64,000 nt of DNA from Gammaproteobacteria bacterium (GCA_965222155.1 CBDCTH010000012.1:96001-160000), one strand, 5' to 3'; shown: positions 2,339-13,461, numbered from the stretch's first letter. Notes: generated from the sequence alone by a model not told the origin. Made by a program: numbers and translations.

Positions 2339-5300
2339 ATGTCAGGACAACTATTCAAACAATATTTTTTAACGGACGGTATCAGGGAAACCAGGGAGTG
2401 GCAGGAATCGGTGAAGCAACCGGAGACGTATACCGGGTTCGCCAATGCCATCACCGCTCGCTTCAACAATTTCAGTCGCTTCAGTGAACCCAATGAAGCG
2501 GTTACGGAACAGGAACTCATTCGTCCGGTCCTGGAGATGCTGGGCTGGACCGACTACCTGCCGCAGCAGGGCACAGCGCGCAATGAGGACGTTCCCGATC
2601 ACCTTCTCTTTGCTGACGCGGACGCGAAGAAGCGGGCCAGTGCCCGCGGCAATTCGCAAGATCGTTATAAGGATGCGCTGCTGGTACAGGAAAGCAAGCG
2701 TATCGGCCGGTCTCTCGATAGCCGGGCAGATGACGAGCAGGCGCATGAGGGCACGCCCCAGGGGCAGATATTACGCTACCTGTTAACTGCTGAAATTGTG
2801 TCGGGGGGTCAGGTCCGTTGGGGCATTCTCACCAACGGCAGTGTCTGGCGACTTTACGACCAGCGCGCCAGACCGCGCGCCAGTGGCTTCTTCGAGACCG
2901 ACCTCAAGGCGATACTGGCTCAGGATGATGAAGACGGGCTGAGGATGTTCTTTCTGCTGTTTCACCGGGAAGCGTACCTGCTCCGGCAGGGCGCAACGGC
3001 TACCTTCCTGGAAGCCGCCCTCGCGCAGGGCCGGCGCTACGAAGAACAGGTGGCCCAGGACCTTTCAAGCGTCGTCTTTGATCGTGTCTTCCCCGGTCTC
3101 GTAAGGGCGCTTGCGGACGCTACCGGAAAAAGCCTGTCGCAGGTTCGCCCCGCCGCGCTGATCTTCCTGTACAGGTTGCTGTTCATCCTGTACGCCGAGG
3201 ACCGCGGGCTGTTGCCTGTCAACGACCTTCGCTATGATGATTACGGCCTGCGCAAGCGGGTGCGAGACGATATCGCGCAACGGAAAAAGCAGGGTGATAT
3301 CTTCTCCGACACGGCAGCCAACTACTACAACCGCTTGACCGAGCTTTTCAGGCTTATCGACAGGGGTGACGACTCCATCGGCTTACCTCCCTACAACGGC
3401 GGGCTGTTCGCGTCCGGGACTGCGCCGATTCTTGGCCGCGCGCGCCTGTCGGACGTGGTGGTCGCTGATATTATTTATGACCTGAGCCACACCGGAAGCG
3501 CGGATGAGCGTCGCTTTGTCAATTACCGCGACCTGTCGGTGCAGCAGATGGGTTCAATCTACGAGAGGCTGCTGGAGCGCGAACCGGTGCGCGCAGACGA
3601 CGGGAGCGTGTCGACCCGTCCCAATCCGTATGCGCGCAAGGACAGCGGCAGCTTCTACACGCCACAGGAGCTGGTTGACCTGATTGTGGAGCAGACGCTT
3701 AAACCGTTGGCTGAAGAGCGATTACAGGCGTTCGAGCACAGGTCGGAAGCGCTCAGGAGCGACCGTCGTCCAAAGGCCGAACGCTACGCCGAACTGGCCG
3801 ATCTGGACCCGTCCGAAGCGGTCTTGAATGTCAAAGTCCTGGACCCGGCGATGGGAAGCGGTCACTTCCTTGTCAGTGCGGTGGACTTCCTGTCTGACTA
3901 CATTGTTACCCTGGTCGAATATGTGCCGGCAGTGCCGGAATGGCTGGACGGCAAGTACACATCGCCACTCGTTGAGCGGATAACCGCAATCCGGGCCGAT
4001 ATTCTGAAACGGGCCGTCGAGTCCGGCTGGGTTATTGACGAGGCGCAGTTTACCGACCAGGCCATTATCCGGCGGATGGTGCTCAAACGCTGTATCTACG
4101 GCGTGGACAAGAACCCGCTGACCGTCGAGTTGGCGAAGATATCGCTGTGGCTGCACAGTTTCACCGTCGGCGCGCCGCTGTCGTTCCTGGACCACCACCT
4201 GCGCTGTGGCGATTCGCTTATCGGTCTCAGTGTGAAAAGCGCCACCGAGGAGTTGTACCGGCTTGGCAGCCTGTTTGTTTCCAGCGCTATTCAGGGCGCC
4301 GAGAACGCCGCCGCCGGTATGCAGCTCATCGAGGAGATGTCCGATGCTGACCTGTCGGAGGTGCGCGAGTCGGCAGACCTGTTCCGAGGCGTTGAAGCAA
4401 CAACAGTGAGCTTACGCGGCCTTCTTGACTTCGTCTGCGGCCTGCGCTGGCTGACGGCGGGAATGAACAAGTCGCAGCGCGCCGGTTTTGAGATTCCTCT
4501 CGTTGAGGCATTGGGAGCGAACCCCGATAACGCCTATAAGATGCTGTCCGGCGGCCCCGCCGCCGCGGCGGGTGATCAGGAAGAATCCTCTCCCTTCGGA
4601 GTGTTATGGAATCAAGCTGTGTCAATAGCCAGGCGCGAGGGCTTCCTGCATTGGCAGGTGGCCTTCCCCGGCGTCTAGCAGCGCTGGCAGGATCAGCGTC
4701 CTGAAGGCGGATTCGACGCCATAATTGGGAACCCTCCCTGGGAGCGCATCAAGCTGCAAGAAGTGGAGTGGTTCGCGACCCGCGCTCCGGAGCTGGCTCG
4801 CGCCCCGACCGCTGCCGCGCGTAAGGCCGGGATCAGGCAGCTTCGCGAACGGGGCGAGCCGTTGGCGCATGAGTTCGACGCGGCCAAGGCCCGTGCTGAT
4901 GACCTCGGTCAAATGGTTCGCACATCAGGTCACTACCCCCTGCTGGGCGGGGGTGATATCAACCTCTACTCACTGTTTGTCGAAAGGGCTATGGGGTTGG
5001 TCAAACCTGACGGTCTGGTGGGGTTGCTCACGCCGTCCGGCATCTACGCCGACAAGACTGCGGCGCGGTTCTTCAAGACTGTTTCGACAAGTGGACAAAT
5101 CGCCGGCTTGTTCGACTTCGAGAACCGCCGCCTCAGGTCCAACCAGCCACCATTTTTCCCGGACGTGGACTCGCGTTTCAAATTCTGCGCCCTGATATTC
5201 GGCGCTGACGAGCGACATTTTACAGAGACCCGGTGTGCTTTCTTCCTCAACGACACCGGCGCAATCAACGACCCGGAGCGCTGCTTCCCCTTATCACCTG

Positions 5301-6400
5301 AGGATTTCGCCCGGGTGAACCCCAATACCGGCACCGCGCCAATCTTCCGCCGCCGCGGCGACGCCGACATCACTCGCCGCATCTACGAGCGGCACCCGGT
5401 GCTCGTTGACCGTTCAGGCGATGAGCAGCGCCGCGCCTGGCCGGTACGCTACCAAACCATGTTTCACATGACCAACGACTCCCACCTGTTCCGTAGCGCG
5501 GCACAACTTGAAGCTGGAGGCTTCTATCCCGTTGAGGGCAATCGCTGGAAACGGGGAGAGGAACTGTACCTGCCGCTGTATGAGGGGAAGATGGTGCAGG
5601 CCTTTGACCACCGAGCCGCCAGCGTAGTGGTTAATCCCACAAATTTGAGCCGGCCCGCGCAGCCCATGATAACTACTTTGACACAACACCAAGATCCGGA
5701 CTGGCTACCCACCCCACAGTTTTGGGTTCCAGCATCGAAATGTGGTTGGCCGTCGGGATCAACCTGGGTTCTTGGCTTCAAGGAAATTACGGCGCCCACG
5801 AACGTCAGAACATTCATCTCGGCGCTTTTACCAACGGTTGGATTCGGGAACAAAGTACCAATTCTCAAACCAGAGACGATAAACCGCAATGAATGGTTAC
5901 TAGCCGCCAACTTCAACGCAATAATCTTCGACTTTGCCGCACGCCAGAAAATTCAAGGCCAGACCTTGAATCTGTTCATCGTTGAGCAGCTTCCTGTCAT
6001 AGCATCCGATGACTACGACCGGCAGTTCGGAGATATTACCGCCCGCGATCTCGTCCGCGACCACGTGCTTCGTCTCACCTATACGGCCCACGACATGGCG
6101 CCGTTTGCCCGCGACCTCGGCTATGACGGGCCGCCGTTCACTTGGGACGAAGAGGAGCGGCGTCACCTGCGCGCCCGCCTTGATGCGTTGTACTTCCACC
6201 TGTATGGGTTGTCGCGGCAGGATGCGAGTTACATACTGGATACCTTCCCTATCGTCCGCAAAGAAGATGAAGCAAAGTTTGGCTGCTACCGCACCCGTGA
6301 CCTTATCCTGGCATACATGAATGCCCTGGTGGCTGGTGATACAGAGACGATTGTAGCGGTACAGGGGAACCGAAGAAGCGCCTCACGGCGCCAAAGATAG
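2339..6400 (+). pseudogene. Type IIG (Eco57I-like) fused restriction endonuclease-methyltransferase with in-frame TAG at 4676-4678
   Basis: ORFs 2324-4678 and 4763-6400 share one frame: ...HWQVAFPGV*QRWQDQRPEGGFDAIIGNPPW; PD..ESK nuclease motif, motif I VLDPAMGSGHFL, motif IV NPPW. Confidence 0.85.
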
Positions 6401-6420
6401 TGAAAAAAACAGAAATTGTA

Positions 6421-6672
6421 TCAGGCAGCTCGCCTACCGGTAATAGCTTCACGCAGCCCTTCGAGCAAGCCTTCCAGTTTGCCCATCCTACCGGCCATAT
6501 CTTCACGGAACTTCGATTGTTCCTTGCCCTGCTCGTCAATGCGCCTGGCCAGGTCATCAATCCGCTTGTTCAAGTCGCTACGCAATCCACGTTGATTAAA
6601 GTGGATAAAGGCAGCTATAGCGATCACCGCGCTGATGATACCGATGATGGTTGTCCATATTTCCGGGGTCAT
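6421..6672 (-). CDS. Small hypothetical protein: N-terminal TM helix plus coiled coil
   Basis: MTPEIWTTIIGIISAVIAIAAF then heptad-like LRSDLNKRIDDL...LEGLREAI. Confidence 0.6.
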   Translation of the reverse strand: MTPEIWTTIIGIISAVIAIAAFIHFNQRGLRSDLNKRIDDLARRIDEQGKEQSKFREDMAGRMGKLEGLLEGLREAITGRRAA

Positions 6673-6831
6673 GTCGTCAGTATAGCAGAATCCGCAGTAG
6701 CTTACGGATACACATAAAATCTAAACAGTTGCTCCCGCTAAATCGAGGTCAACACAGTGATTTTTGCCGGATTCGGGCAAGGGGGACAGATTTAAATGGG
6801 ACTTACTATACAATCTTACCCAAGGGTTTGG

Positions 6832-7248
6832 TTATTCAAAGAACAGGGGTCCCAATACTTTATGGCTTATCTCCCACATTTCGTGAGGTTGGTCTTCTAT
6901 ATAAATTTTGCATGAATGAGAATCCTTGTTCCAACGCGGATAGGTAAGCATTTCATCTTCATGTGCGCTAATTCTGATGGCATTGATTGATTTTTCAAAG
7001 TAAACAGATTTGATATCATTGCTGTCCTGATCGTCCTCAGGGAAACGGCGAACGCTGAACATAGGATAAATTCCTTCGCCATTTTGTTCCAATTGAAAAG
7101 CAAAACCGCGCCTGCGCTTGGCTGACAGTTTATTTGCTTCCTCCACATCGCGTTGCACTATTTGAAAGAGCGATTCGAACGTTAGATAAAGGTTGCACTT
7201 GGCTCGTTCGGCGACCTGGTTAGGGGGCAATGGCGTATTCTCAAACAT
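6832..7248 (-). CDS. Hypothetical passenger protein (138 aa)
   Basis: AT-rich ORF inside the IS, divergent from the transposase; no recognised motif. Confidence 0.6.
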   Translation of the reverse strand: MFENTPLPPNQVAERAKCNLYLTFESLFQIVQRDVEEANKLSAKRRRGFAFQLEQNGEGIYPMFSVRRFPEDDQDSNDIKSVYFEKSINAIRISAHEDEMLTYPRWNKDSHSCKIYIEDQPHEMWEISHKVLGPLFFE

Positions 7249-7291
7249 CCATAATTATATTAGCAGCAAAGGAAATAATTACCAAAAAAGC

Positions 7292-7320
7292 TTGACTTTT
7301 GGGTTGTTTTTGGGTAAAAT
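7292..7320 (+). promoter_or_regulatory. Sigma70-type promoter of the transposase
   Basis: TTGACT-N17-TAAAAT, 28 nt upstream of ATG 7349. Confidence 0.65.
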
Positions 7321-7348
7321 ACTCCCATATATTAATAGGTGCAACCAG

Positions 7349-8257
7349 ATGAAAAAGCAAAGAAATAAGTTATCAGTAGTCCAGATAATGAATATGTTTC
7401 CCGATGATGAAACTGCGGAGCAATGGTTTATAAATTGCCGCTGGCAACATGGGATAGATTGCCCGGCCTGTGGGTCAAAGCGAGTTTCGGAAAGAACGAC
7501 AGGCAAGCGGTCATGGCGTTGTAAGGATTGCCGTAAGGATTTTAGCACCAAGACCGGAACGTTAATGCAGGGCAGTAACCTGGGGTTCCGGGTGTGGGCG
7601 ATTGCTATTTACCTACTGACTACCAGCCTGAAGGGGATTGCCAGCACCAAGCTGGCGAGCGACTTGGGGATTACACAAAAGGTTGCCTGGCACCTGGCGA
7701 TGCGGATTCGGGAAACCTGCGGGGATAGGATGGCCCAGCTTCAGGGCGTTGTTGAGGTAGATGAAACGTATATTGGCGGCAAAAAAACTAATAAACATCA
7801 GAGCAAGCGTATTCCTGGCCGGGGGCCGTCCGGCAAGCAGGCGGTTATCGGCGCTAAGGAGAGAGGCGGCAACATCAGGGCAAAAAGCATTACCCGGCCA
7901 GACTTCTACAATCTCCGATCCTTCGTTAGTGAGGTTGTTGCTGAAGATGCCAATGTCATTACCGATGAGAACCGAGGGTATCAAGGTATTCCACAGGCGC
8001 ACCAGACAGTACACCATTCAGCTAAGGAATATGTCCGGGACCAAGCGCATACAAATGGTATTGAGTCCTTTTGGGCTTTATTAAAGCGGGGCTATTATAG
8101 CACTCACCATCACATGAGTTATAAGCATCTGGATCGGTACGTTAAGGAGTTCTCAGGCCGGGCCAATGACCGCCAGTCACACACTATTGAACAGATGTCG
8201 CACATGGCGCAGGCTATGAGAGGGAAACAATTGAGGTACAATGATCTGATTGCTTAG
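7349..8257 (+). CDS. IS1595-family (ISXO2-like) DDE transposase
   Basis: Zn ribbon CPACG...CKDC, HTH, VEVDETYIGG, ITDE, HTNGIESFWALLKRG, HLDRYVKEF. Confidence 0.93.
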   Translation: MKKQRNKLSVVQIMNMFPDDETAEQWFINCRWQHGIDCPACGSKRVSERTTGKRSWRCKDCRKDFSTKTGTLMQGSNLGFRVWAIAIYLLTTSLKGIASTKLASDLGITQKVAWHLAMRIRETCGDRMAQLQGVVEVDETYIGGKKTNKHQSKRIPGRGPSGKQAVIGAKERGGNIRAKSITRPDFYNLRSFVSEVVAEDANVITDENRGYQGIPQAHQTVHHSAKEYVRDQAHTNGIESFWALLKRGYYSTHHHMSYKHLDRYVKEFSGRANDRQSHTIEQMSHMAQAMRGKQLRYNDLIA

Positions 8258-8337
8258 CAGCAACTCCCAAGCACGATCAGTAAGTGGTTAAAAAAGCTAT
8301 ATTGGCCTGTCCGCGACACCCGCCTGGGTTAAAATAA

Positions 8338-8372
8338 AAAACCCGTGAACTCAACTGAGTTGCACGGGTTTT
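8338..8372. terminator. Long hairpin between transposase and tRNA
   Basis: AAAACCCGTG-AACTCA..TGAGTT-G-CACGGGTTTT, flanked by A and T tracts. Confidence 0.55.
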
Positions 8373-8380
8373 AATTTATC

Positions 8381-8465
8381 GCCCGGGTGGCGAAATTGGT
8401 AAACGCAGGAGTCTCGCACACTCCCAGTCCTCGTGGCTTTGCGGGTTCGAATCCCGCTCCGGGCA
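8381..8465 (+). tRNA. tRNA with Leu-type body and anticodon CGC (Ala); no encoded CCA
   Basis: Acceptor GCCCGGG/TCCGGGC plus A73; D arm GCG-AAATTGGTAAA-CGC; anticodon stem GGAGT/ACTCC with loop CT-CGC-AC; long variable arm AGTC/GGCT; T arm GCGGG-TTCGAAT-CCCGC. Confidence 0.88.
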
Positions 8466-8516
8466 CTCCTTTCTAGTGCACTTAGAAAGTCATTATAGTT
8501 ATTGTAATTCGGTATA

Positions 8517-8663
8517 TCAAACCGTGTTGTTTTTCTTCAAGTATTGCCAGTCTTTCTTCGGCGGGGCCTGCATGATGGCAACGGCAACCCCTTCAGGCCT
8601 GGTATCAACCGGCGGGATCACATTCTTAACAGGCCTCCCGCGCTGTTTAGTTTTCTTGGTCAT
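8517..8663 (-). CDS. 48-aa basic micro-protein with RGRP (AT-hook-like) motif
   Basis: MTKKTKQRGRPVKNVIPPVDTRPEGVAVAIMQAPPKKDWQYLKKNNTV; ATG 9 nt after the hicA stop; below ORF-track cutoff. Confidence 0.55.
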   Translation of the reverse strand: MTKKTKQRGRPVKNVIPPVDTRPEGVAVAIMQAPPKKDWQYLKKNNTV

Positions 8664-8672
8664 AACCAATTT

Positions 8673-8879
8673 TTATAATTCATGCTCTTCAATGCCAGTG
8701 ATATTCATTATTTTTTTCTGTAGTCCTACTTTTAAAGATTTATTGCCATGAACCGGTATTGAAATGGGATAAATCTCACCCTCCTTTACATAAATATGAT
8801 GGCTACCTTTAATGCGCTTAAGCTGCCACCCCTTCTTCCGGATAAGATAACACAACGTCTTTCCGCCTACTGTCTTCAA
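8673..8879 (-). CDS. hicA: HicA family toxin
   Basis: GWQLKRIKGSHHIY...ISIPVHGNKSLKVG. Confidence 0.88.
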   Translation of the reverse strand: MKTVGGKTLCYLIRKKGWQLKRIKGSHHIYVKEGEIYPISIPVHGNKSLKVGLQKKIMNITGIEEHEL

Positions 8880-9078
8880 AAGTAATCTCCCGTAAATCCC
8901 GTTCCAGGATAGTCTTTACATTATCAGCAAGAACAGATAAGCAACCATCAACAGCGTCCTTTAAATTAACAATCAACTCGTTAATTGTGTCTCCTTGTGT
9001 TACACAGCCAGGAATAGACGTAACTTCTGCCCAATAACCTCCTTCATCTGCAATATGAACGATAATCTCTGTTTTCAT
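8818..9078 (-). CDS. hicB: HicB family antitoxin (short, no DNA-binding domain)
   Basis: EGGYWAEVTSIPGCVTQGDTINEL; hicB-hicA order. Confidence 0.88.
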   Translation of the reverse strand: MKTEIIVHIADEGGYWAEVTSIPGCVTQGDTINELIVNLKDAVDGCLSVLADNVKTILERDLREITFEDSRRKDVVLSYPEEGVAA

Positions 9079-9381
9079 AACAGTTATCCTAATAACCATT
9101 TAGTGCGTACCCTAAAGGTACGTATACAATATATTATATATTTCAAACAGAAAAAATCAATTTTTTTGTTGACATCAATCTACCGCTAATCACGGGGTCA
9201 TGGGTAAGATTGTATATAAGTCCTATTTAAATCTGTCCCCCAGGAGGCCGAAGACAGCGGGGACAGATTTAAATCTGTCCCCTAGGAGGCGCGGGACATG
9301 TTTCCCTGGGATGGAGGGCGTCTCGCCCTCCACGAGGGCAGGATGCCCTCGATCCCGGGAGTTAGCGGGAGCACCTGAAAT

Positions 9382-12300
9382 CTAAAATTCGCGATCTTCC
9401 TGGATTATTGCCGCTTCGATCCGACCACTCAGGTAATCAATATATTTTCCCAACCATAGCTGGATTCCGGGAGATGGGATTTCTGACATCCAGCGCCTGG
9501 CGGCATCCCGTTTTTTTGATAGGTATATGCTATCAGGTCCCGTCCATCCGCCCATATAAAAATGCACGCAAAGGCTGCCGGCGATGCGATCATCATCACA
9601 GAATTCTTCAATAAATAAGCGTGTCAATTGACCACCGGCGTTTTCATCAAGGGTTTTCGGTAATACTTCTTGAATTAACCGGAGTCGGTTCTCTATGTCT
9701 GAGTTAATCCAGTCGATAATATCTTCTGCTGGCATGTAGTTAATGGCGCTGTGTTTCGGGTTATCTTCAAATCCAATATCCCCTAACCAGCTGATTAACT
9801 CATAATGATTCTTTGACTCAGATATCAGGAGTTCTGATACGATTTCCCATGCTTCATGGGGGTGGTCCTTTACAATATCAGAGGCGATGTTGTAAACAGT
9901 ATTTCGATAATGAAAAATTCTCCCTATATCGCTCATAATTTCCTTGAACAGATCCATATTCCGGTCAGGATGTTTCTTAAGAAAGCCTTTTGCTATTTTA
10001 TCCCAGTAAAACCCATACATCTGATCATAATCATCGCTGGAGGGCACTGCAGTCAGTACTTTAAAAATCAGATATTCAGGAAAATCGTCCGTGCAGTCCT
10101 CATGAAAATAATAATTGTAGACATACTGCGTACAAATATTGATTGAAGTGCCGTCAGCATGGTGCAGGAGTGCGGTAATGACCTGATGAAGTAGATCACT
10201 TGATAAACTGGTTGTATTCTGTGTAATAATAAATCCACCAAAAGCCACTGGTTCTAATTTCCCGTCCTCAAACAGGGCCAGCATAGCTCGCATGATTGAT
10301 TCGGTAAGACTGGAATCCCGTATGCAATCAATTGCGATTTTGCGAGTTGTTTCATTATATAATAAGCGATGTAGCAGATTTTCCCAGCGCACGGCACTAT
10401 GTGTGCGAACGCCGGCAAGATAGCTTCCCAGGAATTGACCATTGCTATTGGGACTGGCGGATTCGATATAACTCATTATTGGTTCATCAAATTTCGCTTC
10501 GGCTAACTTCCCGCATTCCTTTCCCAACTCCGGCACTCGATATCCGGATGCCTTGACCAGTCTTGGTATATGCTCAGAAAATACGGTAAGGTCCTTCATA
10601 TATTCTTCAGCTAAATCTTGTACTCGTTTGCCGGGTAGTTGTGCTTCCTTAAGTTTTTCCCCACGGGATATATGATCTTCTTCCCAGTTGATATACAGGA
10701 CATAGCGGCAGGTTCTTTCCCATAGTGAGGTGCCGGTTAATACGCTATCCAGTTGTCGGATTCTGGCAAGTGTTTTTTTATCAAGGGGAGCGCTATTTCG
10801 GTGGAGTTGCCGGATAACAAATTGAATCAAAGGGCGACGATTTATTTCTTTGTCGTCAGCAAGCTCAAACAGGATGTCCATTACTTCACCCACCATCGCT
10901 TTGTTATGCACAAACCCACTGGCGGCGCCAACGAATATCTCAGCAACCCGATTCCGATCATCTGCATCAAACCCTTTCATTTCAGCGCGTAGAAATTGTA
11001 ATACCTGGCGCCAATAATCGAATAACTCACCGTATGTCTTGGGGCGCCAGAATTCGATGGCCGGTTTTAGTCCCTGGTACTCAGCGCCAATCATCCGATA
11101 ACCTCCATGCGTCTTTAGCCATTCTTTGCACATTTCCAATCCAAGTGAACGACGACTGGCATCGTCACTCATGACCAGGTCTCGTAAGATTGAAAAGCGC
11201 TTGGACGGTGGCGCCTGTGTCGGCGCCCACCCCGGCCGGACCTGGAATAAACTGAGTAGTAGCTCCTTTGAGTTATTGGAATAGCCAGCATTTTCTGCCA
11301 GTGCCATGGGAATTAGTACAGACACCGCACGGGCAAACAAGTCATCCCATACCGCAATTTTTTCCAAGGCCCATACAATATCCTGGCAGCCGGTATTCCA
11401 GGCATACAGTTCTTCCTGTGACCATGTTTTAATCGTCCTTTCCAATAGGGCCACTGTTGCCCTCGGGTCAGCCTCAGACAGATAGTTCAGGAACCGTAAA
11501 CCGACTTCCGACTTTAAGAAACTCTGATCAGAGAATGGTCCGGTAGTTGATAATATATTTTTGACAACCTTTTTTGCTTGTGGCGCTTCTTGGGCGTAGA
11601 TAAACAATTCTAAAAACCATCGTTTCATACTCTTGGGAACCAGTCCCAGGAAATGCTGAAATTGAAATCCGTGACCATGATTCTTCCAAAATTGTACCCA
11701 TAGGTGTACATGTAACATTTTTGGCACAATGAACAAGGTGTGACGTCCTTGCAGTATGCGTTTGTCTCGATAGTACTGCACAATGACTTGAAATCGGCCC
11801 CAGGTAATCATTGGGTCAACTTGTTTAACGAGGTCGGAAATAAATTCAGCCTCAGCATCCACCGGTACTTCAAACCCAAATCGCTGAAATAATGCAATAT
11901 GACGCAGGACGATTCGATGTTGCGCCGCTTCGTTGCTTGCCATCTCTTTGTGCCCGATAATATATCGATCCCATACGTCAACATCGGCAGGTGCTTTCAG
12001 TAAGTCATCGGGATTACTTTTCAGATTTTCACCGAGCAGGTGGGCAACGCGCGGAGACCCACCGCACCACTTTGCCCAATTACTTAAATCCACCTGTTGT
12101 TGGAGATAGCTGAACAGGATATTTTTGATTTGTTCTTCTGGAAGTTGCGGACAGTGATATATCCGCATGGCGCTGTCGTGGGTATTATCCGGGCCATGAT
12201 CAATCGTAATCAAATTAATGCTGCTACGACCCTTCAACGCTGACCAGATCGATACCCTGTCACGATTATCACAATCATCAATCACTAATGTGACGGAATA

Positions 12301-13461
12301 GGTTCTGTCGGGTTTGAGCAATTCATTGAATAATTTACTCGTTTGAAAATCTTCACCTGCCGACACATAGATGACCGATGGCCCTATTTCATCGACGTCT
12401 AATGCTTCAAGCGCCAGGCGGGTTTTTCCGATACCCGGTTCACCGATGATGCGGATATGTTGAACGGTATTTTCCTGCAGGGCCGTTCTTATCTCCTTGA
12501 TCAATTCTGCCTGTTCATTGCCGAGTTCCAGTACGCCCTGCATCTGGGCGTTATTTCGCCAGCCCTTAATGGGCAGAAAGCTGCCGTCATCCAGACCGAC
12601 CAAGTCACAGCAAAGAGAAGGGTATTTGTACAATTCACCGGCTATCTGTCCTTGTCCGTACACGCGTACCTTTGGATTGGTATAGCCACATTCCTTGAAC
12701 AAATCAGCCAGGTGAGTGGCTGCCTGCGAGTGTTGAATTGGAAGCAAATCATGGCCGAACGTGACGAGAACGTAAGTCCCGTCCTGTTCGAGGCAAGTCC
12801 TTACCTCACTCCCTAAGCGTTGCTTCGATGGAAAGGCACCTGATTTCCCAAGTAATTCTTTCTTCAAGGCGCTGGGTTGCCAGGGTTTAAAAGCCGGGCC
12901 TGTCTTGATTTGATAATACGTACTACCTTTTGCCAACAGAAAACCAGAGGTCGGTGAATTTTCTACCTTTGCGTCAATACCGCTGTCTGGTGCGTTGATA
13001 TTTGAAGACAGCACCACGTCTTTTGGACTAAGCCCGTTGGCGATGGCTTCACATCGTAACAGCCTGAGGAACAGGTTGGGGCCTTCCTGCGAGCCCAATT
13101 GGCCCAGCTGGCTCGGGGTGGGGGCAAATGTCGAATGTACAGGGGCAAGATTTAGATTTATCGAGGCTGATTCTGGATGAAGTTGCACAGCTTGTACATG
13201 TATGCTTACACGCAGACCGGCTTTTTTGGCTAGTGATACAAGGGCATCAAGACTGAATTTATCAATTCTGTCTTTGAGTAAATCGTTCAAACGAGGCTGA
13301 GTAATGCCTAGTGCCTTAGCCTTATCAGCCTGTGTCCCGCCGATATGTTTTTGTATGTGTTCCCGCAAGGCTGCCATCAGTTTTGTCCGTCCCGGCATGT
13401 CAGCGGATGATTCACGACGGGTTCTTGTGGCAGGTTGCTGTTTCTTTACAGTTTTTGTCAT
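9382..13461 (-). CDS. XRE-HTH + PD-(D/E)xK-like nuclease + STAND-type NTPase + helical C-terminus; Avs-like defence protein
   Basis: HigA2-like ALGITQPRLNDLLKDRIDKFSLDAL; DSGIDA...YQIK; Walker A GEPGIGKT; Walker B LVIDD; GxP motif CGGSP. Confidence 0.7.
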   Translation of the reverse strand: MTKTVKKQQPATRTRRESSADMPGRTKLMAALREHIQKHIGGTQADKAKALGITQPRLNDLLKDRIDKFSLDALVSLAKKAGLRVSIHVQAVQLHPESASINLNLAPVHSTFAPTPSQLGQLGSQEGPNLFLRLLRCEAIANGLSPKDVVLSSNINAPDSGIDAKVENSPTSGFLLAKGSTYYQIKTGPAFKPWQPSALKKELLGKSGAFPSKQRLGSEVRTCLEQDGTYVLVTFGHDLLPIQHSQAATHLADLFKECGYTNPKVRVYGQGQIAGELYKYPSLCCDLVGLDDGSFLPIKGWRNNAQMQGVLELGNEQAELIKEIRTALQENTVQHIRIIGEPGIGKTRLALEALDVDEIGPSVIYVSAGEDFQTSKLFNELLKPDRTYSVTLVIDDCDNRDRVSIWSALKGRSSINLITIDHGPDNTHDSAMRIYHCPQLPEEQIKNILFSYLQQQVDLSNWAKWCGGSPRVAHLLGENLKSNPDDLLKAPADVDVWDRYIIGHKEMASNEAAQHRIVLRHIALFQRFGFEVPVDAEAEFISDLVKQVDPMITWGRFQVIVQYYRDKRILQGRHTLFIVPKMLHVHLWVQFWKNHGHGFQFQHFLGLVPKSMKRWFLELFIYAQEAPQAKKVVKNILSTTGPFSDQSFLKSEVGLRFLNYLSEADPRATVALLERTIKTWSQEELYAWNTGCQDIVWALEKIAVWDDLFARAVSVLIPMALAENAGYSNNSKELLLSLFQVRPGWAPTQAPPSKRFSILRDLVMSDDASRRSLGLEMCKEWLKTHGGYRMIGAEYQGLKPAIEFWRPKTYGELFDYWRQVLQFLRAEMKGFDADDRNRVAEIFVGAASGFVHNKAMVGEVMDILFELADDKEINRRPLIQFVIRQLHRNSAPLDKKTLARIRQLDSVLTGTSLWERTCRYVLYINWEEDHISRGEKLKEAQLPGKRVQDLAEEYMKDLTVFSEHIPRLVKASGYRVPELGKECGKLAEAKFDEPIMSYIESASPNSNGQFLGSYLAGVRTHSAVRWENLLHRLLYNETTRKIAIDCIRDSSLTESIMRAMLALFEDGKLEPVAFGGFIITQNTTSLSSDLLHQVITALLHHADGTSINICTQYVYNYYFHEDCTDDFPEYLIFKVLTAVPSSDDYDQMYGFYWDKIAKGFLKKHPDRNMDLFKEIMSDIGRIFHYRNTVYNIASDIVKDHPHEAWEIVSELLISESKNHYELISWLGDIGFEDNPKHSAINYMPAEDIIDWINSDIENRLRLIQEVLPKTLDENAGGQLTRLFIEEFCDDDRIAGSLCVHFYMGGWTGPDSIYLSKKRDAARRWMSEIPSPGIQLWLGKYIDYLSGRIEAAIIQEDREF

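Follow-up and report, generated by a model that had tools for sequence, protein, structure and literature searches.

A leucine-type tRNA with an alanine anticodon inside an IS1595-family transporter insertion sequence

The window analysed here is a 64,000-nt stretch of a Gammaproteobacteria bacterium genome (GCA_965222155.1, CBDCTH010000012.1:96001-160000), and its positions 6798-9224 are a complete transporter insertion sequence (tIS) of the IS1595 family, 2427 bp long. Inside this element lies a class-II tRNA gene that combines a leucine-type body with an alanine anticodon and is accompanied by a conserved antisense unit, an unusual kind of cargo for an insertion sequence (IS). With a probability of about one half, we read the element as a tIS that unites a transposase, a hicBA addiction module, a micro-open reading frame (micro-ORF) and a tRNA cassette acting as an RNA poison together with its antidote. 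The annotation of the individual parts is nearly certain (Table 1).

A leucine-type tRNA body carries an alanine anticodon

ARAGORN found a cloverleaf at this locus and reported it as tRNA-Ala(cgc), and the Rfam tRNA model (RF00005) matched it with 54.7 bits (gathering threshold 29, E 3.2e-10). Each of the four stems is paired, and canonical residues are found at U8, A14, G18G19 and U33 as well as in the T loop. In tRNAs, A73 is the main leucine identity mark, and G3:U70 marks alanine. The tRNA has A73 as its discriminator, the D arm of a tRNA-Leu, a 7-bp acceptor and a 5-bp T stem; the alanine mark is absent, because 3:70 is C:G. It has the same acceptor stem as the host tRNA-Leu(taa), to which it is only 64% identical. 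When the D-arm signature was searched in 400 genomes of the class, 27 of the 29 loci found were canonical tRNA-Leu(CAA or TAA); one of the other two was the tRNA of a second IS1595 element (G137, described below) and one had no tRNA. We rejected an alanine identity on account of the C:G pair at 3:70 and the long variable arm, the host tRNA-Ala genes being 76-nt class I genes. The label of a leucine isoacceptor was rejected as well: the anticodon CGC is neither NAG nor YAA, and the tRNA is therefore not filed as tRNA-Leu despite its leucine-type body. Judged by its sequence, it is a leucine-type tRNA with an alanine anticodon, predicted to read GCG.

The host has tRNA-Ala(GGC) and tRNA-Ala(TGC), and its tRNA set contains no canonical tRNA-Ala(CGC). 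In a crude set of 1098 long host ORFs, GCG makes up 28% of the alanine codons, or 26 per 1000 codons. A passage of a review (PMC11415595) names leucyl-tRNA synthetase (LeuRS), like the alanyl and seryl enzymes (AlaRS and SerRS), as a synthetase that does not depend on the anticodon. An expressed tRNA would thus be charged by LeuRS without its anticodon being read, and any expressed copy would place leucine at GCG codons. Interference with translation, which the initial annotation had proposed, is possible. Within the element itself, GCG accounts for 0 of 16 alanine codons in the four cargo ORFs and 8 of 22 in the transposase (host, 28%); the low G+C content of the cargo may explain its absence there. 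A 31-aa ORF antisense to the tRNA (8371-8466) was discarded, as it has no usable ribosome-binding spacing and its frame enters the terminator.

The tRNA is framed by a terminator-like hairpin and an opposing promoter-like site

The tRNA is the middle part of a cassette of ~190 bp, in which a hairpin is followed by the tRNA and then by a promoter-like site on the opposite strand. The hairpin resembles a bidirectional intrinsic terminator, ends 8 nt before the tRNA, has the longer U run after it on the minus strand, and is homologous to the leader hairpin of a tRNA-like family of the same genus. From the minus-strand promoter site, an antisense RNA of ~150 nt that ends at the hairpin is predicted. 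In the reading we favour, the cassette would keep the tRNA nearly silent by means of the terminator upstream and of a cis-antisense RNA covering the tRNA, the minus-strand promoter firing back through the tRNA as far as the hairpin. The tRNA and its antisense RNA would form an RNA poison with an antidote, beside the protein toxin–antitoxin (TA) pair of the element. We infer this model for the cassette as a class.

The related family is chromosomal, 98 nt long and present in 13 of 22 other genomes of the genus according to a pattern search. Its members score 45-56 bits with Rfam and are missed by ARAGORN. The 24 distinct members share one common cloverleaf, with compensatory changes in the acceptor pairs 5:94 (AU 17, GC 7) and 6:93 (GC 16, AU 9). 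Across the family we counted 12 G-U cells on the plus strand, compared with 2 A-C cells, a bias pointing to the tRNA strand as the one that folds. The anticodon is GCC in 11 members and GTC in 13, and A73-CCA is encoded in 13 of the 24. The loop of the variable arm differs in almost every copy and the rest is nearly invariant; the hypervariable loops TAATAG, TACAAG and TCAGAC recur across species. Units can be arrayed, with 11 in 10 kb in genome G002 and three at 190-nt spacing in G008, where the array (L141) lies between a gene and yebC-ruvCAB-like genes. Family loci include L140 (G002:C1:1143500-1157500), L141 (G008:C2:274000-282000), L128 and L105.

Each family unit begins with a GC hairpin, preceded by an A run and followed by a T-rich run, that ends ~8-10 nt before the tRNA. 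An antisense promoter-like site (TTGACA-17-GATAAT, 10-11 of 12 consensus positions) is present in 24 of 24 members, with its -10 box ending 14-25 nt beyond the tRNA 3′ end, the same placement as in the element; a score of 10 was reached by 1.25% of shuffles. Stand-alone units also have two sites on the tRNA strand: a box similar to a -10 element at position -53 (16 of 24) and, around positions -90 to -110, the palindrome TGTGA-N6-TCACA (18 of 24), which we take to resemble a CRP-type site at class I distance. Units in tandem arrays have the antisense promoter and lack the sense promoter.

The cassette of the element can be aligned with this family from the leader hairpin across the tRNA into the 3′ trailer, and the homology begins roughly where family transcripts would start. 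It shares with the genus cassette the leader hairpin, a leucine-type class-II tRNA with the anticodon loop CU-NNN-AC and the antisense promoter, and differs from it in lacking the 98-nt length, the 29-nt variable arm, the sense -10 box and TGTGA-N6-TCACA. Sequence comparison thus presents it as a diverged derivative of the genus family, and both look like offshoots of tRNA-Leu(UAA). None of the 18 loci with family members has a homologue of the transposase, ORF138, HicA, HicB or the micro-ORF, and we found no other family member in the element's own genome, either with the pattern search or with 5 of the 24 members as queries. In L106 (G016:C79), 4261-4345 hold a degenerate relative of the cassette whose anticodon loop reads CT-AGC-AC and whose acceptor stem is broken; it has a small ORF on one side and a nucleoside-phosphorylase-like gene on the other.

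The element inserted as one piece into a REP-like palindrome

IS1595-family elements generate target-site duplications (TSDs) of 8 bp, and passenger-carrying members, called transporter IS, are known. IS1595-family elements with passenger genes are reportedly covered by Siguier, Gagnevin and Chandler (2009) and by ISfinder. The initial annotation had described the present element as a complete IS1595 tIS with terminal inverted repeats (TIRs) of ~24 bp and an 8-bp TSD, and its coordinates were exact. The 24/25-nt inverted ends are identical at 23 of 24 aligned positions and differ by one 1-nt indel, and the duplicated ATTTAAAT is present on both sides. Joining the outer flanks (6782-6797 and 9225-9240) restored a 24-nt palindrome, GGGGACAGATTTAAATCTGTCCCC, similar to repetitive extragenic palindromic (REP) sequences, with the insertion point at its AT centre. 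Since excision of the element and one TSD copy yields a normal palindrome, the locus serves as its own empty-site control. An uninterrupted copy of the palindrome lies 35 bp from the element (9259-9282), and the 4.55-Mb genome contains 126 copies with ≤2 mismatches. We conclude that the whole of 6798-9224 arrived in a single insertion at the AT centre of a REP-like palindrome.

All of the passengers, namely ORF138, the tRNA, the micro-ORF, hicA and hicB, lie between the inverted ends, as expected of a tIS. The parts listed in the initial annotation (a transposase with its own promoter, a divergent 138-aa ORF, a hairpin, a tRNA and a convergent hicB-hicA-micro-ORF operon) were likewise all found there. 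The tRNA is unlikely to be an integrase attachment site and was rejected as such, the element having no integrase and the tRNA lying inside the inverted ends. The element matches its own genome once and has a G+C content of 44.6%, compared with 52.9% for the genome. A DNA search of 40 relatives revealed no second copy of it, the matches being confined to stretches similar to hicAB (72-78% identity), to REP-like repeats and to tRNA-Leu genes. Of 11 related loci that were inspected, eight had clear inverted ends starting with GGGAATTA and spanned 1487-2822 bp, indicating that variable cargo is normal in this IS clade.

Table 1. Coordinates of the element and its parts in the window.
Feature	Position	Strand	Basis or remark
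Left TSD copy, 8 bp, ATTTAAAT	6790-6797		Within left half of REP-like palindrome (6782-6797)
Left TIR, GGGACTTACTATACAATCTTACCCA	6798-6822	+	Sequence and repeat search
ORF138, 138-aa orphan ORF divergent from transposase	6832-7248	-	ORF listing
Promoter-like site TTGACT-17-TAAAAT upstream of transposase	7292-7320	+	10/12, consensus match only
IS1595-family DDE transposase, 302 aa, N-terminal zinc ribbon	7349-8257	+	Pfam, NCBIfam, alignment
GC-rich hairpin, A run before, T run after	8338-8372		-20.8 kcal/mol on +, -20.3 on -; z -6.4, -6.9
Class-II tRNA gene (long variable arm), Leu-type body, anticodon CGC	8381-8466	+	ARAGORN, Rfam, comparison with host tRNAs
Near-consensus promoter-like site TTGATA-17-TATAAT, aimed into tRNA	8492-8520	-	11/12
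Basic micro-ORF, 50 aa, third gene of hicBA operon	8517-8669	-	Homologues in related IS
hicA toxin gene	8673-8879	-	PF07927 2.7e-15, 56.7 bits (cut-off 27); phrog_353 'toxin' 6e-10
Short hicB-like antitoxin gene	8818-9078	-	PF15919 25.8 bits (just below cut-off 27); phrog_497 'HicB-like' 2.6e-08
Promoter-like site TTGATT-16-TATAAT for hicB-hicA-micro-ORF operon	9133-9160	-	10/12
Right TIR, reverse complement AGGACTTATATACAATCTTACCCA	9201-9224	-	Sequence and repeat search
Right TSD copy, ATTTAAAT	9225-9232		Within right half of split palindrome (9225-9240)

Mismatched tRNAs recur in IS1595 elements

Three further IS1595 elements, in genomes G137, G439 and G847, were found to carry tRNA-like genes, so that the tRNA is not a one-off kind of cargo. 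The refuting condition set in the initial annotation, under which related elements would never carry a tRNA-like sequence, is thereby contradicted. The G137 element spans 2463 bp between inverted ends, is flanked by an 8-bp duplication (GTTTATAG) and contains a hairpin followed by a leucine-type class-II tRNA with the anticodon TCT (Rfam, 58.9 bits); its other cargo comprises a basic micro-ORF of 45 aa and a protein of 287 aa that matches the PADLOC candidate PDC-S42 (3.4e-52). In G439, a left end and transposase with 76% identity precede a 122-aa ORF, a 92-aa ORF and a micro-ORF, accompanied by a hairpin and two class-II tRNAs with the anticodons GCA and TCT (36.4 and 49.9 bits); the contig stops before the right end of the element. 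The 92-aa ORF falls into the same PHROG 'toxin' family as the HicA described here (3.4e-08 vs 6e-10), with a Pfam HicA score of 18.3 bits, below the cut-off, and the micro-ORF is 72% identical over 25 residues to that of G137. A sequence search of two G439 cargo proteins against solved structures returned nothing below E 0.1. The G847 element measures 3.76 kb and has 32-nt ends (91% complementary) and a duplication (AAACGTTA) inside another REP-like repeat. Within it, a hairpin precedes a leucine-type tRNA whose anticodon is the amber one, CTA (56 bits); it also encodes a P63C-domain protein and has two paired genes, the second of which weakly matches CopG_antitoxin (25.7 bits, cut-off 28). 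It is another IS1595 element that landed in a repeat; this ~130-bp REP-like repeat occurs at 1797-1926, 6137-6266 and 6864-6993 of L172 (G847:C1:3175000-3184500).

Counting the present one, hairpin-preceded leucine-type tRNAs with non-leucine anticodons were found in four IS1595 elements, of which three have both ends complete as well as a duplication. TA-like pairs lie beside the tRNA in three of the four (this one, G439 with a HicA-like pair, and G847). We consider it very probable that mismatched leucine-type tRNAs are a recurrent and selected kind of IS1595 cargo.

Phage tRNAs are known to act against anticodon nucleases. The tRNA could accordingly be a decoy or a repair tRNA, that is, a bait or a replacement that protects the host or the element from a tRNA-cutting toxin or defence nuclease. 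This would fit the toxin genes that adjoin the tRNA in the present element, G439 and G847, the candidate defence gene in G137 and the anticodon loops of the genus family, which resemble those of tRNA-Asp/Gly (GTC/GCC). However, HicA toxins are known as mRNA interferases and not as tRNA nucleases, the anticodons vary by element (CGC, TCT, GCA and CTA) and point to no shared target, and none of the four cargo proteins of the present element has a PADLOC match. Pairing of the anticodon arm or the variable arm with the rest of the element, in this element and in G137, also did not exceed 7-8 nt. A protective role of this sort is very improbable.

Evidence for decay and competing explanations

A number of observations weigh against a working poison and antidote, and several of them favour what is the chief rival: that the IS and its hicBA module work, but the tRNA cassette is a decaying, non-functional relic picked up from the chromosomal family. 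This explanation is possible, although well short of even odds. On the tRNA strand, there is no promoter-like site between 7320 and 8381, and the strong hairpin 8 nt upstream should stop most read-through into the tRNA. The family's sense -10 box and TGTGA-N6-TCACA palindrome are absent from this copy. Furthermore, the tRNA has no encoded CCA, which is encoded in 11 of 11 host tRNAs compared and in 13 of 24 family members. The tRNA is 85-86 nt long, and compared with the genus family 12-14 nt of the variable arm are missing.

Additional signs of decay came from public sequencing runs. Four runs were compared as contigs only, from which strand, start, end and expression level are not readable, and positions without cover in runs X3, X4 and X17 carry no information. 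The likely source run covered 6400-9269 without a difference. Runs X17 (an RNA library) and X4 (DNA) contained related copies (~90-95% identity) with 5 nt in place of 8427-8513, a loss that removes the 3′ half of the tRNA and the -10 box of the antisense promoter. The deleted form was found on one 827-nt contig with the hairpin, the 5′ half of the tRNA, the micro-ORF, hicA and hicB. In X4, its contig depth was 14, compared with 4 for the full-tRNA form, and pieces of ORF138, of the transposase and of the right end with the same flank were present as well. Other samples thus contain the element as well, and there it can do without the tRNA. Joints that skip the element near 6770/9250 in X1 and X3 were not counted as empty sites, as they probably stem from other copies of the REP-like repeat.

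The single copy of the element and the lack of such a tRNA in its nearest relatives also fit a relic. None of the 17 nearest transposase relatives (≤56% identity, full-length matches), drawn from one-genome-per-species contigs, had a tRNA inside or downstream; in one of them, L012, ordinary tRNA-Lys and tRNA-Glu genes lie 2 kb upstream. In even samples of 400 genomes each, we found an odd tRNA at one of 29 fetched IS1595 loci in the class (G137) and at one of the 30 best IS1595 loci in the phylum (G847). Two of the latter 30 had any tRNA, the second being an ordinary 74-nt tRNA-Cys. Flanks extended just 1.5 kb in both samples, which makes these frequencies minimum values. One locus per sample comes from a genome marked as unpublished (G063 and G881), and neither of these two loci has a tRNA.

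Against a relic speak the pairing of all four stems and the canonical positions described above, a score of 54.7 bits that falls within the 45-56 bits of the family, the retention of both the antisense promoter (11/12) and the terminator, and the presence of the same kind of tRNA in three further IS1595 elements. Even so, we regard it as doubtful that this particular copy still makes a working tRNA.

The remaining observations against a poison with an antidote concern folding, descent and the antisense unit. RNAfold gave a rod-like fold without a cloverleaf for the tRNA alone (z -1.8), and thermodynamics alone is thus not informative for this tRNA. An exact pattern of the anticodon arm had one match in JGI metagenome contigs, a chance match in a reductase-like coding region with no tRNA there. 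The core of the tRNA is identical to family members at 48-56 of 66 positions and to canonical tRNA-Leu at 37-55 of 66, so that no closer kin was resolved and the link to the family is carried by the flanks. Lastly, there was no antisense promoter for the tRNAs of G137, G439 and G847 (8/12, equal to background), which makes the sense/antisense design specific to the genus cassette rather than general to IS-borne tRNAs.

This last point also bears on another explanation, in which the antisense RNA (~150 nt, minus strand) is itself the product, a regulator of or antidote to the tRNA-like RNAs of the family or the host tRNA-Leu, and the tRNA shape is only its template. In that case one would expect what is seen in all 25 cassettes, a minus-strand promoter matching 10-11 of 12 positions at 14-25 nt past the 3′ end of the tRNA, and also the longer U run on the minus strand, the array units with an antisense but no sense promoter, and a cassette that kept the antisense promoter and lost the sense one. 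Yet the G-U pairs favour the plus-strand fold (12 G-U vs 2 A-C cells), the genome holds no other family member as a target, the host tRNA-Leu(taa) is only 64% identical, and the tRNAs of the three other elements lack such a promoter. We think it quite unlikely that the antisense RNA is the product.

Transposase and protein cargo

The transposase is intact and matched Pfam DDE_Tnp_IS1595 (1.4e-37, 129.5 bits, cut-off 27), Pfam Zn_ribbon_IS1595 (6e-09, 36.2 bits, cut-off 25.4) and NCBIfam transpos_IS1595 (NF033547; 170.9 bits, cut-off 75). In an alignment with four other transposases, D138, D206, E239, C38, C41, C58 and C61 were invariant, and D138, D206 and E239 presumably form the catalytic triad.

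The hicB-like ORF, which is open to 9099, lies upstream of hicA and overlaps it, and its product had no DNA-binding domain match; for hicA, a later TTG at 8855 is equally possible as the start. Most likely, the hicB-hicA pair stabilises the element by addiction. This role had been suggested initially and is reasonable because the HicA match exceeds its Pfam cut-off. Two hicBA relatives lie in other genomes. At 1385-1924 of L022 (G002:C1:1255813-1259233), an inverted end stands alone (GGGGAATTATATACAATCTTACCCA), ~100 bp away from a hicBA pair with 72% DNA identity to that of the element, and the 3.4-kb locus has no transposase; in L021 (G016:C91), a hicBA homologue at 1501-2059 (78% DNA identity) lies ~90 bp from a convergent ordinary tRNA-Gln(ctg).

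Homologues of the micro-ORF were located just inside the right end in all three related IS with ORFs listed (L002, L009 and L011), on the transposase strand in these and on the opposite strand in the present element. The same genome has a further copy, with 64.6% identity, on contig C4, within a relic that lacks a transposase. From these sequences, the micro-ORF appears to be a standard part of this IS clade, and it may encode a small DNA-binding regulator; it matched no family in PADLOC, NCBIfam or Pfam. ORF138 is 25% identical (E 2e-10) to a 130-aa cargo ORF of the related IS in L011, has one other relative (86% identity) among 5.8 billion proteins and belongs to no family in Pfam, NCBIfam, PADLOC or PHROG. 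With none of the four cargo proteins matched by PADLOC, nothing supported the anti-phage role that had also been proposed for the element. Cargo of another kind, a DNA methylase, is carried by the related IS in L002.

Neighbouring genes and related relics

The minus-strand ORF at 6421-6672 (83 aa) combines a membrane helix with a coiled coil; no Pfam family matched it, and its own family is repeated beside tRNA-like units in G002 and G006. The element also has as neighbours a 545-aa ORF (4763-6400, plus strand) that weakly matches an Eco57I methylase (24.2 bits, cut-off 25.3) and a 1359-aa protein (9382-13461, minus strand) in which only an N-terminal HTH_37 domain was recognised. The neighbours of the IS may represent a defence-island setting. 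A tandem array at G000:C12:234134-237425 consists of ~650-700-bp units that match the IS flanks (6500-6554, 6725-6797 and 9249-9379) and correspond to the region of the 83-aa coiled-coil ORF and the REP-like repeats.

The relic on contig C4 (L038, G000:C4:270001-279000) occupies 4721-6962 of its locus and derives from a related IS, with the micro-ORF at 5714-5863. Its right inverted end (6919-6943) is followed by ATTTAAAT and half a palindrome, and next to it is a 285-aa ORF resembling a zeta toxin, with a second copy of its C-terminus at 6972-7175. This second, relic IS end thus also sits in the palindrome GGGGACAGATTTAAATCTGTCCCC, and the use of the same target by both suggests a preference for the AT centre of the REP-like repeat.

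Relation to known systems and significance

The initial annotation had regarded a tRNA next to a TA module as undescribed IS cargo, and only part of this stood. Passages of Mukai et al. (2017, PMC5389517) describe irregular tRNAs with mismatched anticodons near TA systems, one of them overlapping a transposon-related ORF, and suggest that they are missense suppressors or regulatory RNAs. In titles and abstract openings, however, our literature searches found no paper joining IS1595 with mismatched tRNAs, and no description of a sense/antisense tRNA cassette. Like the irregular tRNAs in those passages of Mukai et al., the present one is a class-II tRNA with TA genes nearby and an anticodon at odds with its charging marks. 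In the allo-tRNAs described there, the acceptor and T stems measure 8/4 or 9/3 and the marks are mostly those of serine, whereas the tRNA of this element has 7/5 geometry and leucine marks, so that it works like the allo-tRNA group without being a member of it. It differs from them also in residing in a defined IS, with ends and a duplication, and in having a conserved antisense promoter.

As reviewed in PMC11415595, tRNAProX of Streptomyces/Kitasatospora is likewise a natural bacterial tRNA that combines one identity with another anticodon, including that of alanine, but it has a proline identity, A33/A34 peculiarities and a dedicated ProRSx. The tRNA described here has a normal U33 and no linked synthetase gene, and is mobile. 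Going by its abstract opening (PMC3399842), the pseudo-tRNA tRNA-Other of Bacillus cereus is comparable in being a tRNA-shaped RNA near mobile DNA with a regulatory and not a translational role; it is unrelated in sequence and organism, is not IS-borne, and no antisense unit is reported there. With known IS1595 tIS, the element shares the DDE_Tnp_IS1595 domain with its zinc ribbon, the short inverted ends, the 8-bp duplication and the presence of passengers, and it stands apart by a cargo made up of a tRNA in a sense/antisense layout and the clade-typical micro-ORF.

In type I TA systems, a toxin transcript is held down by a cis-antisense RNA. The cassette resembles these systems in its predicted convergent sense and antisense promoters over a short gene and in its strong, constitutive-looking antisense promoter, but its putative poison would be a tRNA instead of a peptide mRNA. 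A bolder extension of the poison-with-antidote model, which we rate as speculative and improbable, is that IS1595 transporter elements spread an RNA-only poison–antidote pair, in which a mismatched, leucine-charged class-II tRNA, misplacing leucine at particular codons (here GCG), is opposed by a leader terminator and by a cis-antisense RNA made from a consensus promoter. The genus cassette would then have multiplied (≤11 copies per 10 kb), gained a CRP-type operator and diversified its variable-arm loop, and may be a starvation-triggered, programmable switch for mistranslation or growth arrest.

If the present copy is dead, it still documents a recurrent class of IS1595 cargo with a conserved clade micro-ORF, and a large, unannotated tRNA-like family that standard tRNA finders such as ARAGORN miss. 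The cassette could explain why irregular tRNAs recur beside TA genes, a point left open by Mukai et al. (2017, PMC5389517), and its ~190 bp offer a small test system for a tRNA toxin under the control of its own antisense RNA. Should these tRNAs prove to be charged and used in translation, insertion sequences would transport a codon-specific misreading of the genetic code and thereby offer a route, not found in the literature searched, for the horizontal spread of mistranslation or codon reassignment.

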